In this document: piece by piece, positions 7,546-52,620 of the stretch
Numbering within the stretch: position 1 is the stretch's first letter
Layout of the letters: every line of letters starts with the position of its first letter
Assembly (NCBI GenBank): GCA_045628045.1
Contig: JAZQOV010000003.1
Span: 85,773-149,772, forward strand
Source of the DNA: Bacilli bacterium
GTDB lineage: Bacteria; Bacillota_I; Bacilli_A; RFN20; CAG-826
Reading direction: 5' to 3'
Length of the DNA: 64,000 nt
The notes under the pieces: generated by a model
Seen by the model: only the letters and a program-made list of their open reading frames with translations
What the model was told of the DNA's origin: nothing
Database searches by the model: none
Translations under genes and position numbers: made by a program

Positions 7546-7688
7546 GGAGGTTCGCTAGGTTCAAGCCTCTAAACCAAACAAAAAGACACCAAAAGGTGTC
7601 TGTTATTGTCTTGTCTTGCTGCAACAAAGTTAATATTTTTTATAACAAGTGCAACGAAGTTAATAGATTGAACGCGACGAAGTTAATA
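7546..7688. repeat. Module A copy 1: hairpin + terminator + TGTCTT + three 15-bp direct repeats
   Basis: TGTCTT at 7607/7612; GCAACAAAGTTAATA 7621, GCAACGAAGTTAATA 7651, GCGACGAAGTTAATA 7674; homologous to 10285-10425. Confidence 0.9.
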
Positions 7689-8195
7689 TATTCTTTCCAA
7701 TATTGGAGTAACTTCAATTATATTTTTACTTTTATCAAGATGGTTTTTGTCCAAAACTGTCTTTGGTCTAACGCAGTATTTAGCATCAATAAAACCAATA
7801 GTACATTCTCCATTAGTAGTTGCAATAGTACATGAGACTTTGCCTTTTTCAAATTTTTCTTGGAATAATAATTTTTGTTCAAATACTGAATCAAAATTAA
7901 CAAGATGTTTGAGCTTTTGCCTAACAAAACCTTTTATTTCTTTTGATGAATCACAATCAAAATCGTCTTCCGCAATAGACTCATTAACACATCTATCAAA
8001 AAACTCTTCAGCACTTAAATTAGTTTTTACACCAGTTAGATGTAGAAAATTAGTCTTATAAAATCTCAAAATATATTTGTCAGAAACAACAAAAAGATTT
8101 GAAGAAACAGTTATTTTTACATTTAATAATTTTGAATAACTTTTTGCTGCATCAACTAGTTGATTTCTTGTTCTTGTTTTAAATGAGATCTGCAT
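7683..8195 (-). CDS. PBECR4 domain protein (predicted BECR-fold RNase)
   Basis: FYKTNFLHLTGV, F...C, QKL and P-K-T-V-L motifs typical of PBECR4; likely start ATG 8195 (MQISFK) after the leader U-tract. Confidence 0.75.
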   Translation of the reverse strand: MQISFKTRTRNQLVDAAKSYSKLLNVKITVSSNLFVVSDKYILRFYKTNFLHLTGVKTNLSAEEFFDRCVNESIAEDDFDCDSSKEIKGFVRQKLKHLVNFDSVFEQKLLFQEKFEKGKVSCTIATTNGECTIGFIDAKYCVRPKTVLDKNHLDKSKNIIEVTPILERIY

Positions 8196-8202
8196 AAGTA
8201 AT

Positions 8203-8303
8203 AAAAAAAGCGTTTTAAGGTGCGCCACCACGACTTGGACAGGTTTAAGGTCTCTGGCCCGACGAATTGGGTGGTCTTTTTATGTCTCCCATCCCTCTTG
8301 ACA
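8203..8303 (-). ncRNA. Putative structured leader/antitoxin RNA with ~2.7 degenerate pseudoknot-like repeats
   Basis: GC-rich ~100 nt between the promoter and a U7 tract; repeated GAGAC, ACCUUAAA and CCAA(U/G)UCGU; last unit GGUG-GCG-CACC-UUAAAA-CGC can form an H-type pseudoknot. Confidence 0.6.
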
Positions 8304-8308
8304 CTTAG

Positions 8309-8337
8309 ATTATAACAAAGTAATAAAAAAGATGCAA
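8309..8337 (-). promoter_or_regulatory. Sigma-70/SigA promoter for the leader RNA and PBECR4 gene
   Basis: TTGCAT-17 nt-TATAAT with extended TG; -35 lies inside palindrome AGATGCAATTAAATGCATCT. Confidence 0.8.
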
Positions 8338-8359
8338 TTAAATGCATCTCAAATTTTCT

Positions 8360-8435
8360 TGTCTTATTGCAACGAAGTTAATATTTCAAATCTTCACTGC
8401 AACGAAGTTAATAGTCGCTAGCAACGAAGTTAACA
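8360..8435. repeat. Module A copy 2: TGTCTT + three 15-bp direct repeats
   Basis: TGTCTT at 8360; GCAACGAAGTTAA(T/C)A at 8369, 8399 and 8421; a degenerate single-site copy lies at 8525-8548. Confidence 0.9.
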
Positions 8436-8738
8436 TATGTTTTTCGCGCTTTTCGACACTAAAATGATAACTTTTATAATTTAATGTTTCAACAACCAAT
8501 TATCATAATTTCATTGTATTAATATGTCTTGTTGTAACAAAATTAACACAATCAATTTAAATTTTTAAAAAAATAAAACTGTTATGATTACTTGTCTCAT
8601 CTTTATCGCAATAATGATTTTTTAACCAAAACGAACGGACATGATAACTTTATCTGAACAACAATCTTATATCACAGATTTTCAATAAAAAAGCAGGACT
8701 ATAAGTCCTGCTAAATACATCAAACATCTATTGTGATA

Positions 8739-9983
8739 TTAAACACCATTATCAACGTTTGATATGCATGGATTAAGCAGCCTCTTGTAGCTCAAATTCA
8801 TAACAAGAGAACTTAATGGCGCAGTTATTAAAATAGATAAAGCAGAAACAGAAAGCACTATAATACCTGCAGCAATAACAGCTTCTGCTCTAGAATTACC
8901 ATTAGCAAGCATTTGATTTCCTAAATCTAATAGTCCACCACCAATCGAGGCTTGAACTGTGGCTTTTGGCAAATAAGAAATAGTGACAAAAGACCTCTCT
9001 TTAAAGTTTAAATCAGTTTTAATTAAGCATCCTTGAACCATTAGTGATCTTGCGGTTAATGAGATTGCTAAGATTACTAGAGCCGGCAAAATGTAAGTTG
9101 GAACGTATTCTAATCTAATTGAAGCTCCAACTAAGAAAAATAGGAACATCTCAGCAGGAATCCATACTTTAGAAGCTTTAGCACTTAATGCTGTAGCCTT
9201 TTCTTTTCTAAACATTCTAATTACGATACACATAGAGATTGTTGCAAGTAAAGATGAGAAGCCTACATAAGGACTAATTACTTCTTCTAAAGCTACAAAG
9301 CCTATACCTATAGCGATTATTAAGAGTAATTTCATTGAATCTCTCATGTGCACCTTTCCAAAAATAAGCTTTAATAAGAAGCCAAAACCTACACCAATTG
9401 CAACACCAATAACGATAGATAACAAAATGTTTACAAAAGCCATGGCGTTTACATTACCGCCAGCTTCAATACTTATAAAAGTCTGATAAAAGACAATCAT
9501 TACGATGTCATCAATGCTACTACCAGCTAAAACTAATTGAGGAATACCCTTCTTAGTTCCAACTTTTTCATCCATTAGTCTTGTCATCATTGGAATTACT
9601 ACTGCAGGAGACACTGCACCAAGTACTGAACCAAGTAAAAAGGACTCAACATATGTTAAATCAAAGAATAAAGGGGCAACTAAGCCTACAACAATCATTT
9701 CAACTACTGCAGGCATAAAAGACATCATAATAGCAGGCCTTCCTACTTTCTTTAAGTCTGCTATATCAAGCGATAAACCAGCTTTAACTAAAATAATAAT
9801 TAAAGCAATTTTCCTTAAGTAAGGTGAAATTGCAGCAAGATTAGGATCAAATGCTCCTATTGCATTAATCAAAATGCCTAATAAAAGGTAACCAATTAAT
9901 GCTGGAACCTTAATCTTATTAAGTAATAGGAAAATTATTGCTCCACCACCTAGAATGATTAATAAGTCTAGAAAGAATAACAT
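8739..9983 (-). CDS. Cation:proton antiporter (NhaP/NHA-like)
   Basis: LGAVSPAVVIP, GSSIDD and LPKATVQA motifs; about 12 TM; GGAGG RBS before ATG 9983. Confidence 0.9.
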   Translation of the reverse strand: MLFFLDLLIILGGGAIIFLLLNKIKVPALIGYLLLGILINAIGAFDPNLAAISPYLRKIALIIILVKAGLSLDIADLKKVGRPAIMMSFMPAVVEMIVVGLVAPLFFDLTYVESFLLGSVLGAVSPAVVIPMMTRLMDEKVGTKKGIPQLVLAGSSIDDIVMIVFYQTFISIEAGGNVNAMAFVNILLSIVIGVAIGVGFGFLLKLIFGKVHMRDSMKLLLIIAIGIGFVALEEVISPYVGFSSLLATISMCIVIRMFRKEKATALSAKASKVWIPAEMFLFFLVGASIRLEYVPTYILPALVILAISLTARSLMVQGCLIKTDLNFKERSFVTISYLPKATVQASIGGGLLDLGNQMLANGNSRAEAVIAAGIIVLSVSALSILITAPLSSLVMNLSYKRLLNPCISNVDNGV

Positions 9984-10029
9984 TTTGATACCTCCCAAAG
10001 TAAATAAAAACTGATGTATCTAAAACAAT

Positions 10030-10088
10030 GTCTAGATATCATCAGCATCAAATGCGGTTTGATTTAATCAGGGAGATATCATTCCCGA
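10030..10088 (-). ncRNA. Fluoride riboswitch (crcB motif) with overlapping terminator
   Basis: Minus strand GGGAAUGAUAUCUCCC...AAACCGC...GCUGAUGAUAUCUA fits the fluoride aptamer consensus; its 3' part pairs with UAGAUACAUCAG followed by a U-tract. Confidence 0.85.
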
Positions 10089-10284
10089 GATGTATGTATC
10101 ATAACAAATTTATTTTAAAAAACAAGAACTTGTCTCTCTTCCTGAACTTGTTTCTCTTCCTTGCCTATTGAAATTCAATAGCTTTACTTTTCAGAATTCC
10201 GTACAATAAAAGCCGGCTCATTAACTAGTGATTGCTTCTACTTTGTTACGAATCAATTGGGATTAGTTAATGAGTTTTTATTAT

Positions 10285-10425
10285 GGAAGGTCGCTAGTTC
10301 AGCCTCTAAGCCAAACAAAAAGGACACATAGTGTCCTGTTATTGTCTTGTCTTGCTGCAACAAAGTTGATAGTTTTTAAAGTCATCGCAACGAAATTGAT
10401 AGTTACAAAAGCAACAAAGTTGATA
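10285..10425. repeat. Module A copy 3
   Basis: Homologous to 7546-7688; TGTCTT at 10343/10348; GCAAC(A/G)AA(G/A)TTGATA at 10357, 10387 and 10411. Confidence 0.9.
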
Positions 10426-10509
10426 GTCATGTTTTTGTAACTTTTTATTTTATATATAAGATATTGAATTTTTACAATAAAATTCGTCTATCCTGCCCTC
10501 ATCAAAGGG

Positions 10510-10528
10510 TGCGGAGGTAGGATTTGAA
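10510..10528 (-). repeat. tRNA-fMet 3' fragment (att-like)
   Basis: TGCGGAGGTAGGATTTGAA is identical to 14457-14475 and 18/19 identical to tRNA 14656-14674. Confidence 0.85.
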
Positions 10529-10537
10529 TTTCTTCAT

Positions 10538-11197
10538 TTATACGGCTTTTGACTGGTACTTATACCAAATTAGGCCATCCAACTTCTTAACTGTTAAGTG
10601 AGGATACTCTGCTTTTAGAACATTAACTGCATCCTTCATTAAACTCTGGCATTCAGCATTTGAAATGTCATACCCAATAGCATCTCTTATACAATGGTGA
10701 ATATGAACGTCTGGTTTACATCTATCATCTGTGCCAGCCAGCATAAATAAATAATCAGCACCAGCATCGCCCATTCCTTTAACTGAATGAATAACAACCT
10801 CAAGCAACTCAGGATGCTTAAAGTTTTTAAAGTCATCCATGGTATTAATGCCTAAATCTAATAGATACTCTGCTAATTTATAAATAACAGCAGATTTTCT
10901 GTTATGCCCAATAACCTGCATGTTCTTTAAAATATTCTGAGCAAATTTTTCTGTGCCACCTGCTTCATCAATGTGGTTAATAAGTTGTTTTAAATCATCA
11001 CCTGTAGCATATTTATCACCATTCATGTATGTTTTTGCATATCTATCAACAATTGGAACAGTAACTGCAAAATATTTAGCCCTTAAAGAATAAACACAAT
11101 CAATTAAACAAACAGACATTGATGAATATCCATTCGCGTAGTGCTTTTGATTTAAATCAAAATTAGTTTTACAAAATTGAACAAATTCTTCAATCAT
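10538..11197 (-). CDS. HhH-GPD superfamily DNA glycosylase-like protein
   Basis: HhH-like VKGMGDAGADY followed by KPDVHI (catalytic-Asp-like position); LIDCVYS and LDGLIW motifs. Confidence 0.6.
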   Translation of the reverse strand: MIEEFVQFCKTNFDLNQKHYANGYSSMSVCLIDCVYSLRAKYFAVTVPIVDRYAKTYMNGDKYATGDDLKQLINHIDEAGGTEKFAQNILKNMQVIGHNRKSAVIYKLAEYLLDLGINTMDDFKNFKHPELLEVVIHSVKGMGDAGADYLFMLAGTDDRCKPDVHIHHCIRDAIGYDISNAECQSLMKDAVNVLKAEYPHLTVKKLDGLIWYKYQSKAV

Positions 11198-11201
11198 AGT
11201 A

Positions 11202-12290
11202 TTAATTTTTATAAAGTTTAAAATCTCCTATTTCCTTAGTTCTTGAGTTAATAGTTTTTAAAGAAATTTCAGATGCATCCATACCAACCCAAGTCCTTGA
11301 ACGTAATTTTGATGCCCACAATGTTGTTCCGCTACCGGCAAAGCAATCCATAACAATACTATTTTCAGAAGAAGATTCATCAATAATTCTGAGAATCATA
11401 TCAAGATTTTTTTCTGTTGGATATCTTGGATATTGAGGATCTTTAAATGTCCAGACATCTTGTATTTTTTTACCTTTATGTTCATCAGCATATTTTTTAA
11501 TTCTAGGGTTTCCTGTTTTTGACCATTCAATTAATCCTTTGGAATCCAATTCATCAAAAACTGCAGGATCGGTTCTCCAATGTCTACCTTCAGGAGGCAT
11601 CATACCGCGCCATTCCTTCCCTGTAACGCCATTCGTCTCTCCTGGAGCATGTAACGGTATAGTTGTATAGCGCCTTCCATTTTCATCAATTTTAGGAAAC
11701 AATTTCGCCAGCTCTTCATCGGAAGCTTTTTCCTTAATTTCATTCCATAATTGGTTTTTACCGTTTTTACAATAAAAGAAAATGACATCTTTTTCGTTTC
11801 CGTATGCTTTTCTATCAAAATTTTTTGGATTAGATTTAATTCTTGTAATATCATTTCGATAATTTTCTTCTCCAAAAATTTCATCCATTAATATTTTTAC
11901 ATAATGACCAATTTTGTAATCTATATGTAGATAAATGCTGCCTCTATCAGTTAAAAGCTCTCTTATAATGATTAATCGTTCTCTTAAGAATTCTAAAAAT
12001 TCACCTTTAGTCATTTCGTCAGAATATGCAACCTGTCCTTTTTTTGATCTGCTAATTGTGCTGCACCTTCCTTCTGATACAGCAAATGATTGATTTGTAT
12101 TAAAAGGTGGATCTATATATACCAAATCAATACAAGGGCCGCATGTATTTAATAGTTTAGAGAGTCCTTCAAAATTATCTCCAAATATAAAATTATTTTG
12201 GTTTAAATCTAAATCTTCAAACTTATCAAAATTTCTTGATTGTTTGAGAATTTCACTCTCACTTAATTTTTCATCGAATTTTAATTGCAT
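11202..12290 (-). CDS. Site-specific DNA methyltransferase (N6-A/N4-C, beta class)
   Basis: Motif IV YIDPPF precedes motif I DCFAGSGTT; YPTEK motif. Confidence 0.95.
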   Translation of the reverse strand: MQLKFDEKLSESEILKQSRNFDKFEDLDLNQNNFIFGDNFEGLSKLLNTCGPCIDLVYIDPPFNTNQSFAVSEGRCSTISRSKKGQVAYSDEMTKGEFLEFLRERLIIIRELLTDRGSIYLHIDYKIGHYVKILMDEIFGEENYRNDITRIKSNPKNFDRKAYGNEKDVIFFYCKNGKNQLWNEIKEKASDEELAKLFPKIDENGRRYTTIPLHAPGETNGVTGKEWRGMMPPEGRHWRTDPAVFDELDSKGLIEWSKTGNPRIKKYADEHKGKKIQDVWTFKDPQYPRYPTEKNLDMILRIIDESSSENSIVMDCFAGSGTTLWASKLRSRTWVGMDASEISLKTINSRTKEIGDFKLYKN

Positions 12291-12292
12291 AA

Positions 12293-13096
12293 TTATAACG
12301 AATATAAAAAGTCTCTTAATACTAAAGCAGAAACAATAATGTCATCAGGATTATTTTCTAGGTACTTATGCATTTTATTTTTGCCTTTTATATATAAAAC
12401 ACCGTCCATAATAGCTATTTTTACAACTTTAACATCCTTTGCTTTTCCGCCTTCTAAAATAGAGTGTGTGGTTGAAATAGCATCATCAAATTGAGCGTCT
12501 TGGTGACCACCAAAATCAGTTAAGAATTTAGCCTCACCAATTACATATGTATTGTTGAAACGAGCAATAAAGTCAAGTCCTTTATCTCTATTAAAACCAA
12601 AGTACTCCTTTGCAAAATTTTTCATTTCTGCATCGCTAATATTAAGAATCGCGTTTCCTTTGGATAATAAAAATTCCGGTACATTTTTATAGACTGGGGC
12701 TCCTAAACATCCTTTGTCTATCCAATTCTTAAACATTGGACCAATTTGTCTATTCGTTTCTTTTGGTTCTGTACAATTATCATAAATTTCATCAAGCCCC
12801 ATTTCGTAGAGCATTCCACTAATACGATCGATTGTATTAGGATTTCTTTCAATAGCTGTTCTATCTCTTTTCAAGTAAGCAATATAAGAATCCTTAATTG
12901 GGAAAATATCAAAATCGCACAAAGCTTTAATTAAATCTATATTATTTTTGTGTTCAAAATTATATTTAACAGTATTCCATTCTTTATCCCCAATTTCTCT
13001 CCTTGCATTAGCAGACATTGGGTATACTTTGTAAAGTAAATCTAAATAATTCTTTTGGTTCGCTAAATCAACACTTTGTTTTGTCCAGAAGTTCAT
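12293..13096 (-). CDS. Type II restriction endonuclease, Tsp45I-like
   Basis: KGLDF...IGEAKFLTDFGGHQDAQF PD-(D/E)xK core and YLDLLYKVYP N-terminus recalled from the Tsp45I family; adjacent MTase; GGAGG RBS before ATG 13096. Confidence 0.8.
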   Translation of the reverse strand: MNFWTKQSVDLANQKNYLDLLYKVYPMSANARREIGDKEWNTVKYNFEHKNNIDLIKALCDFDIFPIKDSYIAYLKRDRTAIERNPNTIDRISGMLYEMGLDEIYDNCTEPKETNRQIGPMFKNWIDKGCLGAPVYKNVPEFLLSKGNAILNISDAEMKNFAKEYFGFNRDKGLDFIARFNNTYVIGEAKFLTDFGGHQDAQFDDAISTTHSILEGGKAKDVKVVKIAIMDGVLYIKGKNKMHKYLENNPDDIIVSALVLRDFLYSL

Positions 13097-13198
13097 AAAA
13101 GCCTCCTTATTTATATATCTTTGTGCTAAATAAGTCACAAAGAAATAAAGTATGGCAATATTATACTCCTCGTTTATACTTTTTTAAATTATTTTGAC

Positions 13199-13753
13199 TT
13201 ATAACAATGACATATTAATAATTTCATCTATCGAAACTTTGAAAATAATAGAAAATTTATAAATTAGCTCGAGTGAAGGCAATCTATGACCTTCTGTGAT
13301 TGCTACTATAGTAGATCTGTCAACGCCGATCATACTAGCGAATTCCGTCTTGCTTGAATAGCTTTCTTTAATAAGAAGTTCAATCTCCTTACCCAAAAGA
13401 ATCGGATTGATTTGTTTATAAATTGTGTTGTTTTTATTAAAAAATATCATCAGCCACTTGTCGTATGCCGATGATATTGATTGATAATAGAATTTAGGTT
13501 CTTCTTCATCCTTATGATGCCATTCAAGATAATCTATAGCATCCTTTTCATATTGAGTGAGAAGATTATCGTATTCTTTATATAATAAAGTGTATTTAGT
13601 TTTTTCTATTTTATCTTCAAATGTATCTGGTTCACTTTGATTAAGAAATCTGTATCTTTTTGAATCAGATCTAAAGTCTCTAATGTATTCCTTAATAAAT
13701 TTCTTAAATCCGTTTTTACTTTTTGCAAACACATAAGCGCAACTTATCTTCAT
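13199..13753 (-). CDS. XRE-family HTH domain protein
   Basis: C-terminal SKTEFASMIGVDRSTIVAITEGHRLPSLE HTH. Confidence 0.8.
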   Translation of the reverse strand: MKISCAYVFAKSKNGFKKFIKEYIRDFRSDSKRYRFLNQSEPDTFEDKIEKTKYTLLYKEYDNLLTQYEKDAIDYLEWHHKDEEEPKFYYQSISSAYDKWLMIFFNKNNTIYKQINPILLGKEIELLIKESYSSKTEFASMIGVDRSTIVAITEGHRLPSLELIYKFSIIFKVSIDEIINMSLL

Positions 13754-14387
13754 AAATATCCATCACCCTATTAGATATATTCAATAAGTCTAGATACTCT
13801 GCAAGTAAAATATAAACTTTTCGCGGATATCTGATTTCTCTAATGCATTTTTCAAAGACATGATCACTATAGTGTTTCATCAATAAAGTGCCAATAACAG
13901 CTCTATAAGCGAGTTTATCACTTTCTGGCATCTCATCTCTTAAATAGATTAATTCCATCGCTTCCATGATGAATTGAATATCAATAAGATAAAAATCATT
14001 TTTCGTTTCGTATAATTGAATATTTAATTGTTCAATCAATTTATTTCCATCGGTATAACTCGTTATTATTTCAGCAAGTGATGGTTCATCATAAATAAGT
14101 TCGTGTTCATACAAAAGAGATCTACCACATTTTAGGCCTCTATAATTTTTTGTGTAAAATTCAATAACTCTATCCCTATCGCTTAAATCTGAATCGCCAA
14201 TTAAATAAATGCCTTTTGAAATTTTCCTTAATATGCCTTCTTTAGAAATTCTAGAAATATATTTTCTTAGATTATCAATGGAAATGTCAGGAAATACATG
14301 CGTTGATACATAGCTAAAATCTAAAACACCACCCAAGTGGTTTCTCAAGTAAAGTCTTATTTGTTCAGTATCTGTTAGTCTTGCCAT
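13716..14387 (-). CDS. DUF6088/AbiEi-like winged-helix protein
   Basis: LRKYISRISKEGILRKISKGIY wHTH; palindrome AGAGTGAATTTAATTCACTCT in the promoter; leaderless start 6 nt after TGTTAGAAT. Confidence 0.65.
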   Translation of the reverse strand: MARLTDTEQIRLYLRNHLGGVLDFSYVSTHVFPDISIDNLRKYISRISKEGILRKISKGIYLIGDSDLSDRDRVIEFYTKNYRGLKCGRSLLYEHELIYDEPSLAEIITSYTDGNKLIEQLNIQLYETKNDFYLIDIQFIMEAMELIYLRDEMPESDKLAYRAVIGTLLMKHYSDHVFEKCIREIRYPRKVYILLAEYLDLLNISNRVMDIYEDKLRLCVCKK

Positions 14388-14456
14388 ACTCATATTCTAA
14401 CATAAGAGTGAATTTAATTCACTCTTTTTTTGAAAAAGTTCACTTAACTCATAACC

Positions 14457-14475
14457 TGCGGAGGTAGGATTTGAA
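14457..14475 (-). repeat. tRNA-fMet 3' fragment (att-like)
   Basis: Identical to 10510-10528. Confidence 0.85.
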
Positions 14476-14651
14476 ACCTTTCCCACATCCTGCCGAGGTA
14501 ATTTTTAAGAATGAAGCAATTTTATCACAAATTTAAAAAACGAGACATTGTCCTGTTTTTGGCTATAAATAATTATGTAATATTATATACATAGTATATA
14601 AGCATGAAAAAAGACAACCTCACTGATGTAAGATCGTCTCGTTTTCTCGAA

Positions 14652-14729
14652 TGGTTGCGGAGGCAGGATTTGAACGCTGCGACCTCAAGGTTATGGGCCT
14701 TGCGAGCTACCAGGCTGCTCCACTCCGCG
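14652..14729 (-). tRNA. tRNA-fMet (CAT), atypical
   Basis: CGCGGAG...CTCCGCA-ACCA with C1:A72 mismatch; anticodon arm CAAGG-CCCATAA-CCTTG; extra C in the T-stem. Confidence 0.85.
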
Positions 14730-15733: not shown

Positions 15734-15756
15734 AAAGAAAAGGGCTTAAGCCCTTT

Positions 15757-19247: not shown

Positions 19248-19309
19248 AAAAAATCGGCTATAAGCCGATTTTCTTTTTGACTAATGTCTTTAGTGGACTG
19301 AAATAATAC
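19248..19309. repeat. Module B copy 1: terminator + TGTCTT + TGGACTGAAATAATAC
   Basis: Hairpin AAAATCGGC-TATAA-GCCGATTTT; TGTCTT at 19285; 16-mer at 19294 identical to those at 21588 and 21617. Confidence 0.85.
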
Positions 19310-19311
19310 AT

Positions 19312-19349
19312 TTTAATTGCATATTTTTCACGAATTTTATGCAATTAAA
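19312..19349. repeat. 38-bp palindromic direct repeat, downstream copy (contains Fic stop codon)
   Basis: TTTAATTGCATA-14 nt-TATGCAATTAAA; 37/38 identical to 20422-20459. Confidence 0.95.
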
Positions 19350-20385: not shown

Positions 20386-20421
20386 GTCTATATAATAATA
20401 TAGCCAAAAATCTGAGTCAAG

Positions 20422-20459
20422 TTTAATTGCATATTTTTCGCGAATTTTATGCAATTAAA
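20422..20459. repeat. 38-bp palindromic direct repeat, upstream copy
   Basis: Matches 19312-19349; abuts the Fic -35 box. Confidence 0.95.
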
Positions 20460-20474
20460 AATTTTAAATAAAAT

Positions 20475-20525
20475 AAAATCCCTCCTTCTTTTGCCTCAAT
20501 CTTAGGCAAAATTTTGGGGGAGGAG
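20475..20525 (-). terminator. Hairpin H copy (homologous to the tRNA-His trailer hairpin)
   Basis: CCCTCC...TTTTGCCT-CAATCTT-AGGCAAAA-TTTTGGGGG; same design at 51518 and 52569. Confidence 0.75.
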
Positions 20526-20665
20526 TTTCAATTGCGATGGCAAAGGTGAATAGAAATGATACAATGATACCTCTTCCCAGGAGAAAAACGCGACATAATC
20601 CTGAATTCAGCCAGTTTAGTACCCTGTTCTACCTTACGAATCGGTAAAACATACGCTTCCTCCAA

Positions 20666-21265: not shown

Positions 21266-21526
21266 ACTGTTATTCCTCCTGACTATGATAGAGTTAAAAA
21301 TACAAGGTAACCTCTAATAATTAGGTTATCAATTAAATTTTATCGGTTTTCGTGTTTTTTGAACAGCAAATTCCAAAACCGAGATCATTGAGTGTTAATA
21401 TTATTAATAAGCGCTAATAGTCCAAGTGAGCGCTATTAAGATTTAACTGATTTTCAGTTGTTTAAAATAAACGACTAAATGCTAGTCTCAATTGCGAAAA
21501 ACCTATAAAAAATTCAATTAAATAAA

Positions 21527-21632
21527 GAAAAAGGCTGATTTTATCGTTTCCGATTGTATCAACCTTATTCTACTTTGATGTCTTTCGTGGACTGAAATAA
21601 TACGGATTCCCAACATTGGACTGAAATAATAC
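21527..21632. repeat. Module B copy 2: terminator + TGTCTT + two 16-bp repeats
   Basis: TGTCTT at 21579; TGGACTGAAATAATAC at 21588 and 21617. Confidence 0.85.
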
Positions 21633-21722
21633 AAATTTTCGCCATTTTTGTGTGTTTACAAATATTTTTTTAATTTTATTTTTAGATAATCTATTAGGGT
21701 TCGAACTCTAATAGTTAAGCAA

Positions 21723-44821: not shown

Positions 44822-44896
44822 AAAAACCCACCACTTTTTGAAATGGTCGGTTCCGGTATACTTGTGATATATCAGCATAATATTCTGATATCTAAA
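44822..44896. repeat. Module D copy: terminator + GGTTC..CTTGTGATATATCA..TATT(C/G)TGATA
   Basis: Homologous to 48140-48216 and partly to 8716-8748. Confidence 0.75.
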
Positions 44897-44978
44897 GTAA
44901 GAATTAATGTTTGATTTAACTTACATTAGTTCAATCAAAATAACAATAACTCGCACGAATCCTCATGTTCGCTTTTTA

Positions 44979-47345
44979 TTATTCATCTTTATATAATTCA
45001 ATCAAAGATACTTTCTTAATTTTTGTTCTAGAAATTAACAAAACAATTGCAAATGATGCTAATCCAATGCCTATACAAAGTGGAAAAATCCAAATCGGGA
45101 ACACATACTGCACGAATTGAAGCATAGTTTTATAATCAATCTTTGTTATATACACGTAAGTGAAACTTCTCGAAACTGGCATTGCTATAATTAACGACAG
45201 AACAAGCACGATAAAAGACGGAATATTAAAGCTGTTCATAATTTCTTTATCTGTCATTCCAAGAATCTTAAACAATGCGATATTTTTAGTATTCTTGTCC
45301 ATTAAGTGTCTCGTTAATAAAAACATCATTAATACATAAACAGCCGTTCCTGCTACTATAACCATGATTGAAATAGTATTATAAGTTTTAACCATCATTT
45401 TAGCATCTGCTTCTAACGTTGAAGGGGTTATTATGGATTCAATATGTTCATCTTCAAAACAATCTAAGACATGATCAGAAAAGTATCCGTTTAAAATAAT
45501 ACCTTTCAAATCATATTCTATTCCATAAAACTTCAAAATTCTTTCAATAGACCCTTCATAAGGTTCAATTCTATTTTTATAAATTAGATTCGAGGTAGTC
45601 CTAATTGGAGCAAACAAACAAGCACTAGAATAATATTTGTATATTCCGGCCACTTTATAAGTAATGTTTGTTCTTGAATTTGAATCGAAAAATGTTAATT
45701 TGCTATTAACACCAACACCATATTTATCTTGGAAAGCGGATGAAATGAAGACAGTATCTTCTTCATAATTTGAAAAATCAATATCTATGTATTTGCTATT
45801 ATCAATTATGCCATACATTGATATGGTGCTTTGTTTATAACCGGCTTGTTCATAATCAAATGAATACATTCCAAATTTTTCAACATTTGGTTCATTACAT
45901 TCTACCGGCAATTTTAGTAAATACATGTTTTCACAAAAAGCTTCATTTACTACATTCTTTACTTGATTATCGACACAAGTCTTAAATGAGACTCCAGTCG
46001 TAAAAAGGATTGAACCAAGAATAACACCTATAAATAAAAATAGGTAATTTGCGAAATTTTTCATGAAAATTCTTTCTCTTAGTCTTGCGAAAAATCTCTT
46101 TTTATTTTTCAACACTTTTGTTCCTTGCTGAGAAGCATGTTCAATTTCCCCTCTTAAAAATTGAGATGTTGGTTTTTGAATAAATAAAACAACTATCAAA
46201 AACGAAATCGCAAACAATATTACTGATGGAACGATTGTGGTTAAAACAAAAATATCCCAATAGAAAGGTATCGAAATTAATTTAAAAGAAAATAGTTCTG
46301 TGAAAATATCAGCAAATATTGGTGCAAAAACATGATAACCTAACAAATTACCAACAATTGACGAGACAAGAATTACAAATAAAGGTAATAATAAATAAAA
46401 CGATGTGAGTTGTGTTCGTGTAATTCCTGTCGCTCTTAAAGTGCCAATTACTTTCGATTCTTCGATTATTCTTGAAGTTGTATCAATAGAGAAAACAAAC
46501 GCTATAATAGCAATCATAACGTACACAAATGCTAGAATAATAGGTGTATATTGTGAGGCATAATTTTTAGGAGTGATTATATTTTTATTTTCATTTGCTG
46601 GTAAAAACTTAATGACAAAATTCATGTCTTTTTTTGTCAAATTATTAATAGAGTTTTTTATTTCGGCAGAAACAGCATTTTTTTCTTCATCGCTTAATTG
46701 TTTGTTAAATTTATATGCGTATGAAAAAGTTAAATCGTTAACTGGAAATTTAGAAAAAGATTCATTATTTACATATCCAAGTAAAAATTCTTCAAATTTA
46801 AAAGCTACATCAGCACTGGATTTTCTAATACTAGGATAATCAGAGAAATAGCCTCTACCAACTATGTTAAATTGATAACTATTTATTGAAATGGTTTCAC
46901 CAATCTCGTATTTATTATAATCTGAGTAACTTTCTTCTAATAAAATTTCATCAACAGCATTTGGCATACGCCCACTTGAAAGTGATATTTTATTAATTTC
47001 ATTTCTATTTGTGTATACATTTACATAATTATTCTCGTTATTTTTGTTGACAAATTTAACGTTATAATATGAATTTTCTTCAATATTTAAATCGAATTCT
47101 TCTTCAATAGTTTTAATATTTTTGTCGCCAAATTTAAAGAAAGTAGAAAATTCACCATCTTCAGTATTTTGTGAACTTAACATTGAATAATATGATTGGT
47201 CAACCGCTTGAGTTCCTATTAAATAACCGGAGACAAAAGAAAACAAAATAATGAGAAAAAAATGCAAAATAAAAAACTTGAGGTAATTCTTTTTATACTC
47301 ACGCGGTGCTCTTTTTAATATGGTTTTTGAAAAAATGCCTACCAT
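44979..47345 (-). CDS. FtsX-like ABC transporter permease
   Basis: IGTLRATG and IALFKILG FtsX motifs; two TM clusters. Confidence 0.88.
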   Translation of the reverse strand: MVGIFSKTILKRAPREYKKNYLKFFILHFFLIILFSFVSGYLIGTQAVDQSYYSMLSSQNTEDGEFSTFFKFGDKNIKTIEEEFDLNIEENSYYNVKFVNKNNENNYVNVYTNRNEINKISLSSGRMPNAVDEILLEESYSDYNKYEIGETISINSYQFNIVGRGYFSDYPSIRKSSADVAFKFEEFLLGYVNNESFSKFPVNDLTFSYAYKFNKQLSDEEKNAVSAEIKNSINNLTKKDMNFVIKFLPANENKNIITPKNYASQYTPIILAFVYVMIAIIAFVFSIDTTSRIIEESKVIGTLRATGITRTQLTSFYLLLPLFVILVSSIVGNLLGYHVFAPIFADIFTELFSFKLISIPFYWDIFVLTTIVPSVILFAISFLIVVLFIQKPTSQFLRGEIEHASQQGTKVLKNKKRFFARLRERIFMKNFANYLFLFIGVILGSILFTTGVSFKTCVDNQVKNVVNEAFCENMYLLKLPVECNEPNVEKFGMYSFDYEQAGYKQSTISMYGIIDNSKYIDIDFSNYEEDTVFISSAFQDKYGVGVNSKLTFFDSNSRTNITYKVAGIYKYYSSACLFAPIRTTSNLIYKNRIEPYEGSIERILKFYGIEYDLKGIILNGYFSDHVLDCFEDEHIESIITPSTLEADAKMMVKTYNTISIMVIVAGTAVYVLMMFLLTRHLMDKNTKNIALFKILGMTDKEIMNSFNIPSFIVLVLSLIIAMPVSRSFTYVYITKIDYKTMLQFVQYVFPIWIFPLCIGIGLASFAIVLLISRTKIKKVSLIELYKDE

Positions 47346-48040
47346 TCGATTTCACTTATTGCTTTCTTATTATTATTAACTTCGTTAGAGACAATAACTC
47401 CATCTTTTAAAGTTATAACTCGATCCGCCATTTCTTTAAGTGCGGCATTGTGAGTTACCATTATTATTGTCGCTTGATATTTTTGATTTATTTTTTCAAA
47501 TATGGACAAAACTTCTTTACTAGACTTATAGTCTAATGCCCCAGTAGGTTCGTCTGCTAAAATGATATCAGGATTTTTTGCAATGGCTCTACCAATAGAA
47601 ACACGCTGTTGTTGGCCGCCACTAATTTGACGAGGAAATTTTTCTTTATGGTCAGTTAAACCAAGTGAATCAATTATTTCATCAATATCTAAAGAGTCTT
47701 CTACAAGTGAAGCACTTAACGCTATGTTCTCACGTACTGTTAAATTAGGAACTAAATTATAATTCTGAAAAACAAAACCAACATTTTTTCTTCTATATTG
47801 AGTCGCTTTAGTTTCACTTATATCAAATAAAGAATATCCATTAATTGTAGCTTCACCATCATCAAACTTATCAATTGCACCTAAGATGTTTAACAAAGTT
47901 GACTTGCCACATCCTGAAGGGCCAAGAATGACAACAAATTCCCCTTTGCCAACAGAAAAGGAAACATTTTTAAGAGCATAAAATAAATTATATTTTGAAT
48001 CACCGTATGTTTTATTCAAATTTTTTATTTCAAGTAGCAT
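47339..48040 (-). CDS. ABC transporter ATP-binding protein (LolD/MacB-like)
   Basis: GPSGCGKS, ISGGQQQR and ADEPTGALD motifs. Confidence 0.95.
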   Translation of the reverse strand: MLLEIKNLNKTYGDSKYNLFYALKNVSFSVGKGEFVVILGPSGCGKSTLLNILGAIDKFDDGEATINGYSLFDISETKATQYRRKNVGFVFQNYNLVPNLTVRENIALSASLVEDSLDIDEIIDSLGLTDHKEKFPRQISGGQQQRVSIGRAIAKNPDIILADEPTGALDYKSSKEVLSIFEKINQKYQATIIMVTHNAALKEMADRVITLKDGVIVSNEVNNNKKAISEIEW

Positions 48041-48139
48041 AACGAATCCCCTCCTTATAGTTTAATTCCGAAACGACAGAATTAATTGTTTTTTGATGAC
48101 AACATTTTATTTCTTTCATATTTTACTACACAGGCAATG

Positions 48140-48216
48140 AAAAACCTATATATTTTTAAATAATAGGTTCTGACATGCTTGTGATATATCAACTAACTAT
48201 TGTGATACTAAACACC
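48140..48216. repeat. Module D copy
   Basis: Hairpin AACCTAT...ATAGGTT followed by CTTGTGATATATCAACTAACTATTGTGATACTAAACACC. Confidence 0.75.
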
Positions 48217-48239
48217 ACTAAAATGTTATTTGTATACAT

Positions 48240-49136
48240 CTACTTCAAAACAGACTTGATCGGAATCCAAATTTGAGTGTGATAATCAGAATCTGTCTTT
48301 TCACCATTAACACAATCATACCATTCAATGTTACCATCGCCTCTTAATTCGAATTCTTTGTTAAGTGGTAACCATTCTTTGAATATTTTTGTGTTAAGTT
48401 CTTGTAATTTTTCTGGACAAGGTCCTATGCAATCAAAGATTGCCCATTTTCCAGCTGGAAATTCGTAAAGCATCATTCCTTCTGGAACTTTTCCTCCAGC
48501 GTATCTTCCAGCTATTAAATATTTGAATTTTGTGCCTTTACATTCAATACAAACTCCGAATTCTCCAATGCAATTATCAACAATTGTTTGTTCATAATCG
48601 TTTTCGGCTGGCAAACCTCTATAAATATGCGGAAAACAATACTTCTCACATATTTCATCCCAAAATAATGGGATTTCCTTATAAGAAGATTCCATATCGA
48701 ATTCTTTAACAAATCCAATTAATTTAATTGGAAACATGTCAGTAACTTTATAATTCATATTAGATAAAATTCCTCCTTTAATTTGAATATCTATTGTCAA
48801 GGGATCAAATCTTTTAATTTTATGTTTCTTAATTTGCGATGGATTAAACTCGTGAAATCTTTTAAAGGCCTTGGTAAAAGATTCTGGAGTTTCATAACCA
48901 TACTCTAAAGCAACATCAACGATTTTTTTATTGTCTTTTAAATCTAAGGCTGCTAAATATAGTTTTCGGTTTCTTATATACTCACCTATTGAATAACCAG
49001 TCATGATATTAAAACCTACTTGAAGATAATAACTTGAAACATAAGAATTATTCGCTACATCTTGGATGTTTATGTTTTCTTTTATATGATCTTCTATGTA
49101 ATCAATAGATGCTTTAATGCAACTCAACCACTCCAT
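48240..49136 (-). CDS. AraC family regulator with GyrI-like effector domain
   Basis: EYIRNRKL...YGYETPESFTKAFKRFH; C-terminal IFKEWLP...QIWIPI. Confidence 0.93.
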   Translation of the reverse strand: MEWLSCIKASIDYIEDHIKENINIQDVANNSYVSSYYLQVGFNIMTGYSIGEYIRNRKLYLAALDLKDNKKIVDVALEYGYETPESFTKAFKRFHEFNPSQIKKHKIKRFDPLTIDIQIKGGILSNMNYKVTDMFPIKLIGFVKEFDMESSYKEIPLFWDEICEKYCFPHIYRGLPAENDYEQTIVDNCIGEFGVCIECKGTKFKYLIAGRYAGGKVPEGMMLYEFPAGKWAIFDCIGPCPEKLQELNTKIFKEWLPLNKEFELRGDGNIEWYDCVNGEKTDSDYHTQIWIPIKSVLK

Positions 49137-49257
49137 TATTAATCTCCTGACAACATTATACTACTTGCTTTAAACAATATAATCTTGTTAAAAAATATAA
49201 TGATTTGTCTTAATACTATTTTGTTGGCCAAAAATAAAACACCCTTTTGGATGTTTC

Positions 49258-49398
49258 AATGTCAAGCAGGCAGCCTAATTAAGGAAACTACTTATTCGCT
49301 CCAGGTGTTAAGTGGATTCGTTTAACCCCTGCATCGCATGTAATACCAATTCTATTGAATGCGCCGCGGTCGCACGCTGAATTTCCACCTTTGACATT
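49258..49398 (-). ncRNA. Structured element, probably Clostridiales-1 RNA motif-like
   Basis: Closing stem AATGTCAA/TTGACATT with internal hairpins; minus strand UGUCAAAG..GGAAA..GCGUGCGAC..GCAUUCAA..GGGUUAAACG..AAGUAGUUUCC..GGCUGC resembles the recalled Clostridiales-1 consensus (unverified); strand uncertain. Confidence 0.6.
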
Positions 49399-49404
49399 TT
49401 GTAT

Positions 49405-50394
49405 TTAATTTAATAAGTCGCTAAAGATTTCTTTATAAACTAAAGTATCCTCAATACGAGTAATGGCGGTAATTTTATTTCCAGAATCTTTACTCGAAGA
49501 TCCACAATGGAAAATCATTTCGTTAATTAATCCATAGTCTAAAACAATGTATCTATCATGAAACTTTCCATTATTTGATTTTAATTCAACAATATTTTGA
49601 GTTTCAGTTTCAAAATCTTTTATATAATCATTACTTATATTATTTCTAGCTTTATTGTCTGAAATAATCGTAATTTTGACATTTTTCTTACACGATTTTA
49701 ATAATTGGAATGTTTTAAGATCAATATAATCATCAACAATCAAAATTGTTTTTTTAGCTTTGCTATAAATAGATTGATAAGCAACATCTGCTTCAATTTT
49801 ATTTCCATCTAATATTAAGAAATGTTTAAAGGAAGAAGAATCTATAAACTTATCAAATACGATTTTCAGTTTCTTCTCATGTTTCTCTAATTGAAAAGTG
49901 TGTTTGCTTACTGTGTTAGTTAATTTTAATAACTCTGAAATAGAAATAAGATTCTGATTATTAACAATATAATCTTTCATTTCTTTAAAAGTTTTAATAA
50001 GCAAAATGCTTTGTTTAGTTGCAAGCTCACCTTTCAAAACGGTCATTAACATATAAACGCCCTGTTCAGTGAAAGCGTATGGAATGTGCCTATCACCACC
50101 CCAACTTGCGGTCGCAATTTGCGACTTCAAGTTTTTTTCACTGTGTGAACTTGCAGTCGAATTTTTCAATTTTAAGATTGTTTCCCATTCCTTTTTGTTT
50201 AATTGAAATCTAAAAGTTTCATCAAATTTTTCTAAATTTCGTTTAACTTGTTCGTTAAATCTTTTTGTTTCGTATCCATAAAATTCAGAGAGTTCAAAAT
50301 CAAGCATAACCTTTTGACCACGAACTTCATAAATCATTGAGTTAATGCTTTTATCTAAAGATAAAGTTTGTTCTTTTAATTTTATTTCTTTCAT
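49405..50394 (-). CDS. ORF6N domain protein with C-terminal PLD-like domain
   Basis: RGQKVMLDFELSEFYGYETKRFNEQVKRN and PYAFTEQGV; C-terminal FHDRYIVLD...GSSSKD. Confidence 0.9.
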   Translation of the reverse strand: MKEIKLKEQTLSLDKSINSMIYEVRGQKVMLDFELSEFYGYETKRFNEQVKRNLEKFDETFRFQLNKKEWETILKLKNSTASSHSEKNLKSQIATASWGGDRHIPYAFTEQGVYMLMTVLKGELATKQSILLIKTFKEMKDYIVNNQNLISISELLKLTNTVSKHTFQLEKHEKKLKIVFDKFIDSSSFKHFLILDGNKIEADVAYQSIYSKAKKTILIVDDYIDLKTFQLLKSCKKNVKITIISDNKARNNISNDYIKDFETETQNIVELKSNNGKFHDRYIVLDYGLINEMIFHCGSSSKDSGNKITAITRIEDTLVYKEIFSDLLN

Positions 50395-50456
50395 GCTTAT
50401 AATGTATCATTTATGCTGAATAACAACATAAATGATACTGAAAGGAATAAAAAAAT

Positions 50457-50499
50457 AAAAAACAGGCGTGTGTCAAACCTGTTGTTATCTAATGTCTTT
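50457..50499. repeat. Module C copy 1: terminator + TATCTAATGTCTTT
   Basis: AAAAACAG...CTGTTGTTATCTAATGTCTTT, homologous to 52449-52492. Confidence 0.8.
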
Positions 50500-50537
50500 C
50501 TAATAAAGAAATGATCAAAATAAGCCAAATTAAATTG

Positions 50538-51326
50538 TTACTTCTTCTTGCATATGTAAATTAAATGATTGTTTCTACCAAGTAATTCTCTTTTTTCAGA
50601 AAAATGAATATGCCAATTTATGTATGATTTAAATTCTTCATCAGTAAAATGAAAGTCAGTTCTTTCTTCTAATGATTCTAAACTGCCATCAGTTCCTACA
50701 GTTGTTATATATTCTACAAACTTATTCTTAAATAGATTTTCAAATTCACAAACATCATATCCAGTAAATAATTGTTCCTCGAAATGCAGTACATTCATTT
50801 TATCATCATAATTTTCTTTTAATCCTGCGCTCCATTTGCCATACATATAGTTAGAGTCCATAATTCCATAAATTGAAATAAAAGCAAACATTAAAATACC
50901 ACCAGATTTTGTTACTCTAATTGCTTCATCAATTGCTTTGTTTATATCTTTGCAATCGTATAAGTGATAAAAAGGACCGAATGATAATGTTAAATCAAAA
51001 TAATCATCTTGAAATTTAGATAAATCAACCGCATCACCAAGATACGATTTAAGATTGATTATTCCACAGGAATTTTTTTGTAATACTTTTAAATTATTTT
51101 CAACTAATTCAATTGCCGAAACATCATATCCTTCTTTTGCCAAAGCAATTGAATATTTACCAGTGCCGGCACCAATTTCGATTATCTTAGCACTTTTATT
51201 TATATACTTGTGTATAAAATGCATTGTGGTAGCATATTCTAGTTGTCCGTGTCTGCTTCTAATTAATCTTGTATCTTCATTAGTTTTATCATAGAAATCT
51301 TTTAAATATTCTTTTCTTCTACTCAT
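50538..51326 (-). CDS. Class I SAM-dependent methyltransferase
   Basis: IIEIGAGTGKYS and FGPFYHL motifs. Confidence 0.92.
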   Translation of the reverse strand: MSRRKEYLKDFYDKTNEDTRLIRSRHGQLEYATTMHFIHKYINKSAKIIEIGAGTGKYSIALAKEGYDVSAIELVENNLKVLQKNSCGIINLKSYLGDAVDLSKFQDDYFDLTLSFGPFYHLYDCKDINKAIDEAIRVTKSGGILMFAFISIYGIMDSNYMYGKWSAGLKENYDDKMNVLHFEEQLFTGYDVCEFENLFKNKFVEYITTVGTDGSLESLEERTDFHFTDEEFKSYINWHIHFSEKRELLGRNNHLIYICKKK

Positions 51327-51517
51327 ACTATTTCTTCAGTCTCCAAAATCCCGTTTTATTATTTCTTTATTATATCATGATTAAATCATTTACTCAGAAG
51401 AAGTATAGATGTTTTAAACATAAAATTTTTACTTAGTCTCGAATGTGTTATCTCATAATCTTTCACAAACCTCAAATTTTTTTATTTTTTGAATGAACAT
51501 TAATATTCTTGTAAAGA

Positions 51518-51637
51518 AAAAATCCCTTCTGTTTTGACTAATTTTAAGTCAAAATTTTGGGGGAATTTTTATCCTTATGTCTTTTTGCAATGATACCAAT
51601 ACACGTTTTTTTCAAATTAGATATGATACCAATACAC
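51518..51637. repeat. Hairpin H + TGTCTT + two 15-bp repeats
   Basis: H hairpin at 51518-51568; TGTCTT at 51578; ATGATACCAATACAC at 51590 and 51623. Confidence 0.85.
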
Positions 51638-51646
51638 TAAGACTAA

Positions 51647-52393
51647 TTAGTATCTTTTTTTGTCTTTGTGCTTTTTCCACCACTTTTTAAGTGGTAAATC
51701 GTGAGTTTTATAATCCTCAATTATTTTCTTCAATTTTTCTTCATTTAACACTTTGTGGAAAAAGAATGTAGGTTTGTTTCCGCTTTCTTTATCACTAGCC
51801 ATCTCAGATAATTTGAATTGTTCAAACTTAATAACCAAGTTATTTGAGATTTTTTTAAGTTTAAATCCTAAATGTAAGGAATAAGCAAAATCAACAACCA
51901 TCATTCCGATTACTAAACCTACAAAATAATCATAGATTGGGTAAGTTGAAATCGTTTCAATAGCATTAACTAATAATGGATTCAAAAAGAAATAATATAA
52001 ACTACCGGCAACAAACCAAATCAATGAAAATAAAGGACAAATAACACCCTTAAAGTTTCCCCATCGATCTGAATAATCCCACAGTTTCAAATGCATTCCC
52101 TTAATAAAGATTAAACCAGCAACAAGTTCTATTAGTGTCATCATTATTCCAATAATAGCGAGAATTATTATTGTTTTTAGCGCTTTAGAAAGTTCAAGAT
52201 TAGCAATTCCAAAATTTGAAATTGCAAATAATAAAATTACACCAAAACCATAAAGTGGAATGTATGGTCCAACTAAAAATCCTGGATTGACCCAACGTTT
52301 TTGAGAGACAAATCTTCTATAAAAGAGTTCAATAACATAGCCAATTATTGATCCGATAACAAACAATGTAGAAATAACTACTAAAACTTCCAT
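51647..52393 (-). CDS. Putative ABC transporter permease (CmpB-like membrane protein)
   Basis: GFLVGPYIPLYGFG and LWDYS..WGNFKGVICP motifs. Confidence 0.85.
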   Translation of the reverse strand: MEVLVVISTLFVIGSIIGYVIELFYRRFVSQKRWVNPGFLVGPYIPLYGFGVILLFAISNFGIANLELSKALKTIIILAIIGIMMTLIELVAGLIFIKGMHLKLWDYSDRWGNFKGVICPLFSLIWFVAGSLYYFFLNPLLVNAIETISTYPIYDYFVGLVIGMMVVDFAYSLHLGFKLKKISNNLVIKFEQFKLSEMASDKESGNKPTFFFHKVLNEEKLKKIIEDYKTHDLPLKKWWKKHKDKKRY

Positions 52394-52448
52394 GTGTTTA
52401 TATTAGCATTTTACAAGAAAATCACCATCTATAATCTTTTATAGTTGT

Positions 52449-52502
52449 AAAAACAGAGCCAAAATAAGGTTCTGTTGCTATCTAATGTCTTTTAAGTATC
52501 AA
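52449..52502. repeat. Module C copy 2
   Basis: AAAAACAG...CTGTTGCTATCTAATGTCTTTTAAGTATCAA. Confidence 0.8.
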
Positions 52503-52568
52503 AATCAATAATTGGCGATAAATTCAATTTTACATATTTACGCTTTTCTCTAGTGTTATTTGCATATA

Positions 52569-52620
52569 AAAAACCCTCCTCTATTTTAACCAATTTTGGT
52601 CAAAATTTTGGAGGGAATTT
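52569..52620 (-). terminator. Hairpin H / tRNA-His terminator
   Basis: Long bulged stem starting 8 nt after the tRNA CCA, ending in a U-tract on the minus strand. Confidence 0.75.

Follow-up and report, generated by a model that had tools for sequence, protein, structure and literature searches.

The window analysed here, a 64,000-nucleotide stretch (C3:85773-149772) of a 1.07-Mb, 33% GC and 96% complete Bacilli genome, contains three tracts of small gene units, which lie directly 3' of the genes for tRNA-fMet, tRNA-Ser and tRNA-His and whose cargo includes restriction-modification, Fic/Doc and PBECR4 genes as well as transporters (Table 1). An original prediction, made from the sequence of the window, had located the tracts at these tRNA genes and proposed that a site-specific enzyme encoded outside the units accretes them as cassettes at tRNA 3' ends. 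Our comparative analysis bears out this proposal and revealed the same ends on prophages and islands that carry a tandem pair of large serine recombinases (LSRs). We take the tracts to be part of a real cassette system, likely driven by phages, in which such an LSR pair would act at tRNA CCA ends. The nine TGTCTT sites, the three repeat families (A, B and C), the hairpin H (20475, 51518 and 52569) and the module D (8716, 44849 and 48166) described previously were all found in place. The hexamer, however, is not constant as had been claimed; only its TG is invariant, with TGTGTT on contig C6, TGGCAAA at 20538, TGTCAAG at 49260 and TGCTTG in module D, and with TGTCTC, TGTCCT and TGCCTT among the variants in relatives. 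TGTCTT alone is uninformative, occurring 40 times on the plus and 30 times on the minus strand of the window. A family-blind scan of the whole 1.07-Mb genome for the full grammar (TGT[C/G]TT with a direct repeat and a terminator) gave eight matches at seven distinct junctions, all eight within 10 kb 3' of a tRNA gene and on the right strand, compared to a baseline of 9.4%. These matches fall in four tracts and hence are not independent, and only the fourth tract, 3' of tRNA-Arg(TCT) on C6, lies outside the window. The full grammar is hence not due to chance.

At each junction, a TG dinucleotide links the terminator and spacer of one unit to the repeat-bearing end of the following unit. Alternative alleles and contig joints place the breakpoints in relatives exactly at this TG, in line with the earlier expectation that strains would differ at the modules. 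The module-bearing genomes besides the source are labelled as Bacilli or Firmicutes metagenome-assembled genomes; 12 of 16 genome-contig matches were read, ten with the grammar and two by chance (L034 and L037), and L032, L035, L039, L042 and five of the six metagenome matches (L049 was kept) were left out of later counts. In these relatives, left halves of junctions abut the TGG (CCA end) of tRNA-fMet, -Ser, -Trp, -Gly, -Pro or -Arg genes. For example, the left half of 7612 and 10348 is joined to tRNA-fMet (L002, G033) or to a TGTACG end (L006, G017), that of 21579 to tRNA-Ser (L202, L217) or tRNA-Trp (L212), that of 22864 to tRNA-Ser or TGTCTT (L036, L195, L223) and that of C6:58923 to tRNA-Gly (L199), while the family-A right half was seen in combination with eight or more different left partners. 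This comparison of junctions in relatives yielded no alternative allele for 8525, 51578 and 52486. Element and target have only TG in common, and there is no target duplication.

Entire units likewise recur at different tRNA genes. A 4.5-kb Feo unit lies at tRNA-Trp (L041) and at tRNA-Pro (L046) with the same ends both times, the Fic gene of the 1253-bp unit lies immediately next to tRNA-Ser(TGA) in G008 and within a tRNA-Gly(CCC) tract of G030, and the methyltransferase unit of the tRNA-His tract is also present in a tRNA-Leu(CAA) array of G024, where it has another left neighbour. The 748-bp unit is found in L033, again with a different left neighbour. The TG breakpoints and the recurring units therefore define a unit as running from the spacer and terminator, which replace those of the tRNA, through to the repeat-bearing end. 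At tRNA-Ser, one public contig (run X2, depth 5.5) represents a precise empty site, in which 19284 is joined to 22864 and 3579 bp are missing. The tRNA-fMet target is backed by the alternative allele in G033 (L002) and by contig joints of 7592/7601 to 14651/14652, and reads at the His tract, from runs that cover <40% of the stretch, gave no clean empty site. A joint of a different kind was seen in L088 (G356:C8), where a tRNA-Ala-type terminator meets an LSR-pair end at a TG several bases beyond the CCA position, a possible off-register event or deletion.

The ends of the units also bound three complete prophages of about 47 kb and two islands of 23-26 kb, all of which contain tandem LSRs. Hence, the term 'recombinase-less' applies to the small units and not to the system as a whole. 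The prophage G003:C21 is a whole element of 47.4 kb with terminase, portal, protease, capsid and tail protein genes, arranged in the order tRNA-fMet CCA, terminator, LSR pair and, at the far side, a family-A end. Both of its ends have counterparts in the window: positions 14425-14654 align with its proximal end (local score 147 versus a maximum of 106 in 200 shuffles), right after which the LSR pair follows in the prophage, and positions 8360-8438 show 92% identity over 79 bp with its distal end. The seven distal cargo genes of this prophage also form a unit of their own at tRNA-Pro (L036), where the phage body is missing, and the same element, with a 98% identical LSR, resides at tRNA-Arg(TCT) in G007. 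Prophages from two other families of the class, G630:C1 at tRNA-Cys and G618:C12 at tRNA-Leu, follow the same plan; both end in TGTCTT plus other repeats, and one has a 5.9-kb unit behind it. In a second layout, represented by complete islands of 25.7 and 23 kb at tRNA-Ser(GGA) (G007:C48 and G298:C14), the pair is located at the repeat end. The TGGCAAAGG end, which belongs to a unit of the tRNA-Ser tract that the original prediction had missed, follows an LSR pair in the prophage G003:C2, and in relatives the TGGCAAA end is preceded by a further LSR-pair clade, with the target of that element beyond the contig end. The distal end of a prophage in G249 is tentative, and that of an element in G127 was not found.

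The source genome contains no intact LSR, and a domain search of the whole genome detected no LSR or resolvase domain; the sole trace is a relic of 127 amino acids in a tRNA-Ser(GGA) island, which is 90.5% identical to an island-layout LSR. This region (G000:C6 195703-207800, 3' of tRNA-Ser(GGA)) also carries radical-SAM and TIR-like genes, a tyrosine recombinase of 301 amino acids and a cysteine-rich small open reading frame (ORF). The genome encodes two further tyrosine recombinases, both in an Xer-type core context, which makes three in total. Its single rve domain is part of an IS3-type fragment; within the window, positions 39772-40889 hold a broken IS3-type transposase (helix-turn-helix (HTH) and rve fragments).

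Among a first set of module-bearing relatives, LSRs were present in all five genomes, mostly as tandem pairs. Searches with a query LSR (E ≤ 1e-60) matched 52 of 201 family genomes, unrelated LSRs included, and an LSR profile at 1e-120 matched 12 of 300 class genomes. Of the best 11 family-level loci, eight end at a tRNA CCA, two at a contig end reading TGG and one is cut inside the gene; among 13 new class-level loci, five end at a tRNA, one at a transfer-messenger RNA (tmRNA) gene and three at a TG-repeat end. The targets beside LSR pairs comprise tRNA-fMet, Arg(TCT), Thr(GGT), Leu(TAG), Leu(GAG), Gly(CCC), His, Trp, Cys, Lys(CTT) and Ser(GGA) as well as tmRNA, where Lys and one His locus have broken LSR genes and stand outside the tree, and a single LSR clade accounts for 11 tRNA types and tmRNA. 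A quickly built tree with 56 LSRs unites the second proteins of the two layouts in one clade (SH-aLRT 97, 18 rows) and the first proteins in another (90, 10 rows); single LSRs, including two that lie in rumA-type genes, branch separately. Both proteins contain resolvase and recombinase domains (PF00239 and PF07508), the first one also a zinc ribbon (PF13408), and the catalytic YxR[VI]S motif is kept in both across all rows. Five phage records with LSR pairs showed no recognisable tRNA or TG-repeat junction, the best phage matches had <80% coverage and about 36% identity, and scans of viral contigs for the junction pattern and for the LSR found nothing. The family-A pattern occurs in 7 of 401 order genomes and the family-B pattern in 2 of 301 family genomes; the repeat sequences diverge quickly.

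Analyzing 113 tRNA junctions drawn from related genomes, we found invariant positions at 1-3 (TGG) and 16-24 (the T-loop), counted from the T of TG, and 29 element ends are conserved to position 24; the left half of the junctions holds no more than 1 bit. The half-site contacted by an LSR is 25 bp long, and its outer end carries the 9-bp motif of the zinc domain, at 16-24 in attP and 11-19 in attB when the core is numbered 0 (PMC3783163). T-loop-like motifs are enriched within 16 proximal ends (16 seen versus a mean of 1.4 and a maximum of 5 in 200 shuffles; the pattern was chosen post hoc and the ends are kin), which fits accessory sites. Copies resembling a T-arm or acceptor, without TGG, lie inside the proximal ends at 14455 and 10508 in the window, near 200 in L003 and near 11490-11590 in L036. 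Among 20 pairs of similar ends, 13 have different partners, and these are identical at -1 to -5 in seven cases, with one difference in four and three differences in two. Judged from these alignments, exchange of coupling sequences, a Tn916-type trait, is not the rule.

On the basis of these comparisons, we infer, with a probability of roughly 0.78, that the units were integrated successively at tRNA CCA ends by the tandem LSR pair of related prophages and islands. Specifically, a circle junction of the form spacer|TG|repeats would recombine with spacer'|TG|tRNA across the 2-bp core; the tRNA would stay intact and receive the terminator of the element, while older units would be displaced outward. 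One LSR may read TGG and the invariant T-loop as its half-site and the other the first repeat, whereas binding to the spacer half would be rather unspecific; the additional repeats and the T-loop-like copies in the proximal end could serve as accessory binding sites. The recombinase-less units would then be internal-deletion derivatives that retain both ends and that a visiting phage could move in trans or, together with itself, in cis. A broader proposal, to which we give even odds, is that a two-protein serine recombinase can take any tRNA or tmRNA gene through its encoded CCA and T-loop half-site, with the opposite half nearly free. Every tRNA gene would thereby become the entry site of an integron-like array, and phages would shuffle sub-kilobase cassettes among loci and host genera, with the tRNA untouched and no duplication.

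Several observations weigh against the assignment to the LSR pair. A tyrosine recombinase of about 300 amino acids is encoded in all seven tRNA-targeted prophage regions queried and in one of four island regions. The T-loop lies at 14-22 when the core is numbered 0, which is inside the zinc-domain zone but in neither canonical register (attB 11-19, attP 16-24). Canonical LSR sites consist of two conserved, inversely repeated half-sites of about 25 bp, whereas junctions of families A, B and C lack a dyad and have a nearly free spacer half; a dyad around TG was seen at one junction of the island family (G252:C1). Of the 13 different-partner pairs, 6 differ at one to three of the positions -1 to -5, G003:C21 and G007:C26 differ at two of these five, and a 2-base indel is present at the Ser end. 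In a second set of module-bearing genomes, the LSR profile matched three of five and none in the other two, 4 of the 13 class-level loci have no recognisable target, and the tree comes from a quick search only. Contig back-joints (22861 to 21576 and 19282; 14645 to 7622) fit tandem arrays as well as circles. Finally, two module-D junctions lie inside G003:C21 with no tRNA near (15855-15977 and 20129-20212; L105 and L106); they bracket a three-gene block, possibly a captured array or the product of a second recombination system.

The LSR pair could also be the enzyme if the small units were immobile relics, each left behind in place when a large LSR element decayed, and moved at most in cis with an intact neighbour. 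Such accretion is described for tyrosine-integrase elements, the cis-mobilizable elements (CIMEs), in the accessible part of PMC5704250 and suggested for Dehalococcoides in that of PMC3146451. The LSR relic of the source genome, broken LSR genes at tRNA-His and tRNA-Lys in relatives and the existence of the ends-only 143-bp unit speak for decay. Yet the ends are well conserved, and small units with both ends are found at different tRNAs (Feo at Trp and Pro, Fic at Ser and Gly, the methyltransferase at His and Leu), which needs either independent mobility or repeated identical deletions. As far as these sequences tell, the distribution suggests independent movement, and we regard the relic explanation as unlikely. 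Somewhat less probable still is that the phage-borne tyrosine recombinase of 317 amino acids makes the junctions, with 2 bp of homology, a mismatched overlap as in the integration of Tn916 and CTnDOT, and the repeats as arm-type sites. In its favour, this protein is encoded in every tRNA-targeted prophage region that was queried, the sequence at -1 to -5 varies to some degree, and direct repeats next to a core are a typical trait of tyrosine integrases. However, homologues with 34-35% identity occur in single-LSR prophages of G003, one of them in a rumA-type gene, and the protein therefore does not track the target. It also has no homologue in the complete islands G007:C48 and G298:C14, comprises only SAM-like and catalytic domains and is encoded 1.6 kb inside the element, while the LSR pair abuts an end in both layouts; moreover, 7 of the 13 different-partner pairs are identical at -1 to -5. 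The previous suggestion that TGTCTT itself is a tyrosine-recombinase overlap conflicts with TG being all that tRNA and element share.

Transposon ends of the Tn7, Mu or IS21 type had been considered as well and would imply a DDE transposase combined with a target selector that reads tRNA genes. The TGT followed by iterated sites is reminiscent of such ends, and the family-A repeats resemble TnsB sites. Nevertheless, the tRNA side has neither a second TG end nor a 5-bp duplication, the proximal terminator travels with the unit, the sole rve domain of the source genome belongs to the IS3-type fragment, and no transposase of this kind was seen at the ends of five complete elements. The junction anatomy contradicts this explanation, which we regard as very unlikely. 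Searches for TniQ (0 of 6 genomes) and Mu-C (one weak match in five) are not counted, and their controls were silent. The idea that TGTCTT marks the 5' end of a short AAAGACA RNA found no support either.

Table 1. Units, ends and target genes of the three tRNA tracts, in window coordinates.
Tract	Feature	Position	Strand	Description
1	tRNA-fMet(CAT)	14652..14729	-	tract 1 target; CCA end (TGG on +, TG at 14652)
1	tRNA-proximal end of newest fMet unit	14425..14651	-	terminator, spacer, tRNA T-arm-like copy at 14455
1	4.3-kb unit	10348..14651	-	family-A end at 10348, second T-arm-like copy at 10508
1	unit(s)	8360..10347	-	family-A end 8360, degenerate end 8525, module-D fragment 8729, Na+/H+ antiporter gene
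1	748-bp unit	7612..8359	-	family-A end, PBECR4 nuclease gene
1	spacer and terminator	7546..7611	-	abut tRNA-fMet in G033, TGTACG end in G017
2	tRNA-Ser(TGA)	22864..22952	-	tract 2 target
2	1285-bp unit	21579..22863	-	family-B end, Fic/Doc gene
2	1041-bp unit (new)	20538..21578	-	TGGCAAAGG end (TGGCAAA at 20538)
2	1253-bp unit	19285..20537	-	family-B end, Fic gene between two 42-bp palindromes, hairpin H
3	tRNA-His(GTG)	52629..52705	-	tract 3 target
3	ends-only 143-bp unit	52486..52628	-	truncated family-C end, hairpin H
3	908-bp unit	51578..52485	-	family-C end, CmpB-type membrane protein gene
3	1085-bp unit	50493..51577	-	S-adenosylmethionine methyltransferase
3	probable older unit	49260..50492	-	conserved 141-bp TGTCAAG...TTGACA element, ORF6N gene
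3	probable older unit	48176..49259	-	module-D end (TG at 48176), AraC/GyrI regulator
3	probable older unit	44859..48175	-	module-D end (TA replaces TG at 44859), ABC/FtsX transporter genes

In the tRNA-fMet tract, the 4.3-kb unit encodes an unknown ORF, an N6/N4 methylase, a Tsp45I-type endonuclease and an HTH protein, and the terminator and spacer of the unit(s) at 8360..10347 recur at 7546-7611. A structured-looking leader lies upstream of the Na+/H+ antiporter gene (10000-10110), with no Rfam match at the gathering score. Hairpins had been described as missing at 8360 and 8525; the former has one, and the latter is a degenerate end without a clear hairpin. Similarly, of the three stop codons placed inside repeats, those at 7683 (family-A repeat) and 8739 (module D) are so located, but 19345 falls into a 42-bp palindrome and not into the family-B repeat. 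Co-orientation of cargo and tRNA holds in the window, where most genes are on the minus strand anyway, but cargo on the opposite strand is present in relatives.

In the tRNA-Ser tract, the proximal end of the 1285-bp unit is joined to tRNA-Ser or TGTCTT in relatives, and that of the 1041-bp unit abuts tRNA-Ser or tRNA-Trp. The two palindrome copies that bracket the Fic gene (19312-19357 and 20422-20467) recur in relatives, and just upstream of tRNA-Ser, at 22962-23033, Rfam detects a tRNA-like gene (43 bits) that is absent from the ARAGORN predictions. In the tRNA-His tract, hairpin H is followed by 13 bases and then by the TGG of tRNA-His (52629) or by TGTCTT (51578), and family-C ends are present in a tRNA-His array of G024 (L254). 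The 141-bp element (49260-49400) has terminal TGTCAA/TTGACA inverted hexamers and occurs in at least five relatives of the genus, with two copies in G017; it lies 3' of tRNA-Glu in G030 and of tRNA-Arg in G005, and a partial copy is found at tRNA-Thr on C6 (C6:29700). In its behaviour it resembles a further unit end, but it may contain a small RNA; it has no Rfam match, no folding signal (z 0.37) and weak covariation. In run X1, the contig depth of the ABC transporter unit at 44859-48175 is about ten times that of the sequence on its left, and the unit also has raised depth in X5 and X7, suggesting that it is widespread on other elements.

The integrases found at tRNA genes are, as a rule, tyrosine recombinases that use one tRNA each and create a partial duplication, the feature used by island finders. 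Because the elements described here leave nothing but TG, such tools would overlook both them and their cassettes. An LSR pair that reads what all tRNA genes share would, if true, account for the ability of one phage to locate a harmless site in different bacterial families. Such a pair would also allow tests of the way in which half-sites are divided between two LSRs, a question still open for CcrA/CcrB, and could provide a portable tool for non-disruptive integration in bacteria.

Similar to integrons, in which small recombinase-free units form arrays with the newest next to a fixed site and stop codons sometimes lie inside the site, the tRNA units are small, lack a recombinase, are added at a fixed site and sometimes have their stops within it. 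In contrast to integrons, they involve no IntI and no attC, have their own promoter regions and a terminator, and likely depend on a phage-borne serine pair; the prophage tyrosine recombinase scores 36 bits against the integron integrase profile (cut-off 265), and the junctions are not attC-like palindromes. The following comparisons draw on the accessible parts of the cited sources. CIMEs (PMC5704250) and tycheposons (10.1101/2020.12.28.424599) also accrete at tRNA 3' ends, and their decayed forms keep att sites, just as the units here keep both att ends in a genome without LSR or resolvase domain; however, they use tyrosine integrases, each for one tRNA, with partial tRNA duplications. Integrative and mobilizable elements with serine recombinases are listed as gene-disrupting or of low specificity (PMC5704250). 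Multi-targeting LSRs (PMC10083194) resemble the pair in that one LSR cluster has many target sites, aligned on a 2-bp core, but they are single enzymes, most of which have DUF4368 and AT-rich targets; a domain search gave no DUF4368 match in the LSR-pair proteins. The word tRNA is absent from the main text of that study, whose supplements may list such targets, and the accessible part of 10.1101/2025.09.16.676606 offers nothing further on such targeting. Our search, outside which subscription journals and supplements lay, found no literature description of CCA-targeting, isotype-independent LSR pairs.

The closest parallels are two serine recombinase systems. In the ssrA islands of Dehalococcoides (PMC3146451), two co-transcribed serine recombinases, DsiA and DsiB, lie beside an RNA gene and read toward it, the islands are arranged in tandem, and 15 of them have no integration module. 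There, ssrA is the sole target, the crossover is in the T-loop, a 20-bp duplication arises and DsiA has 200 amino acids, whereas the tRNA units are associated with two full-length LSRs, a crossover at CCA, no duplication and many targets. Staphylococcal cassette chromosomes (SCC; CcrA/CcrB, composite SCC and ccr-less islands; PMC13739063) share the tandem LSR pair, strand exchange at a central dinucleotide, the intact gene 3' end as target, tandem accretion that pushes older elements outward, and units without recombinase. They differ in their single target rlmH, the GA core, the TATCATAA motif, the 8-bp motif in all four att sites and the degenerate inverted half-sites (PMC13739063), compared to a TG/CA core, at least 11 tRNA types plus tmRNA, one near-free half-site, direct-repeat ends and tailed prophages among the carriers of the tRNA units. 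Against Ccr profiles, the LSR-pair proteins score 45-121 bits (cut-offs 700-900) and thus are not Ccr proteins. The system works like SCC and the Dehalococcoides ssrA islands, yet belongs to neither, because its recombinases are not Ccr proteins, its target is not a single gene and its integration leaves no duplication. Integration by an LSR pair at any tRNA CCA end, together with accretion of recombinase-less derivatives as in the staphylococcal cassettes, appears to be the best reading of the tRNA tracts described here.

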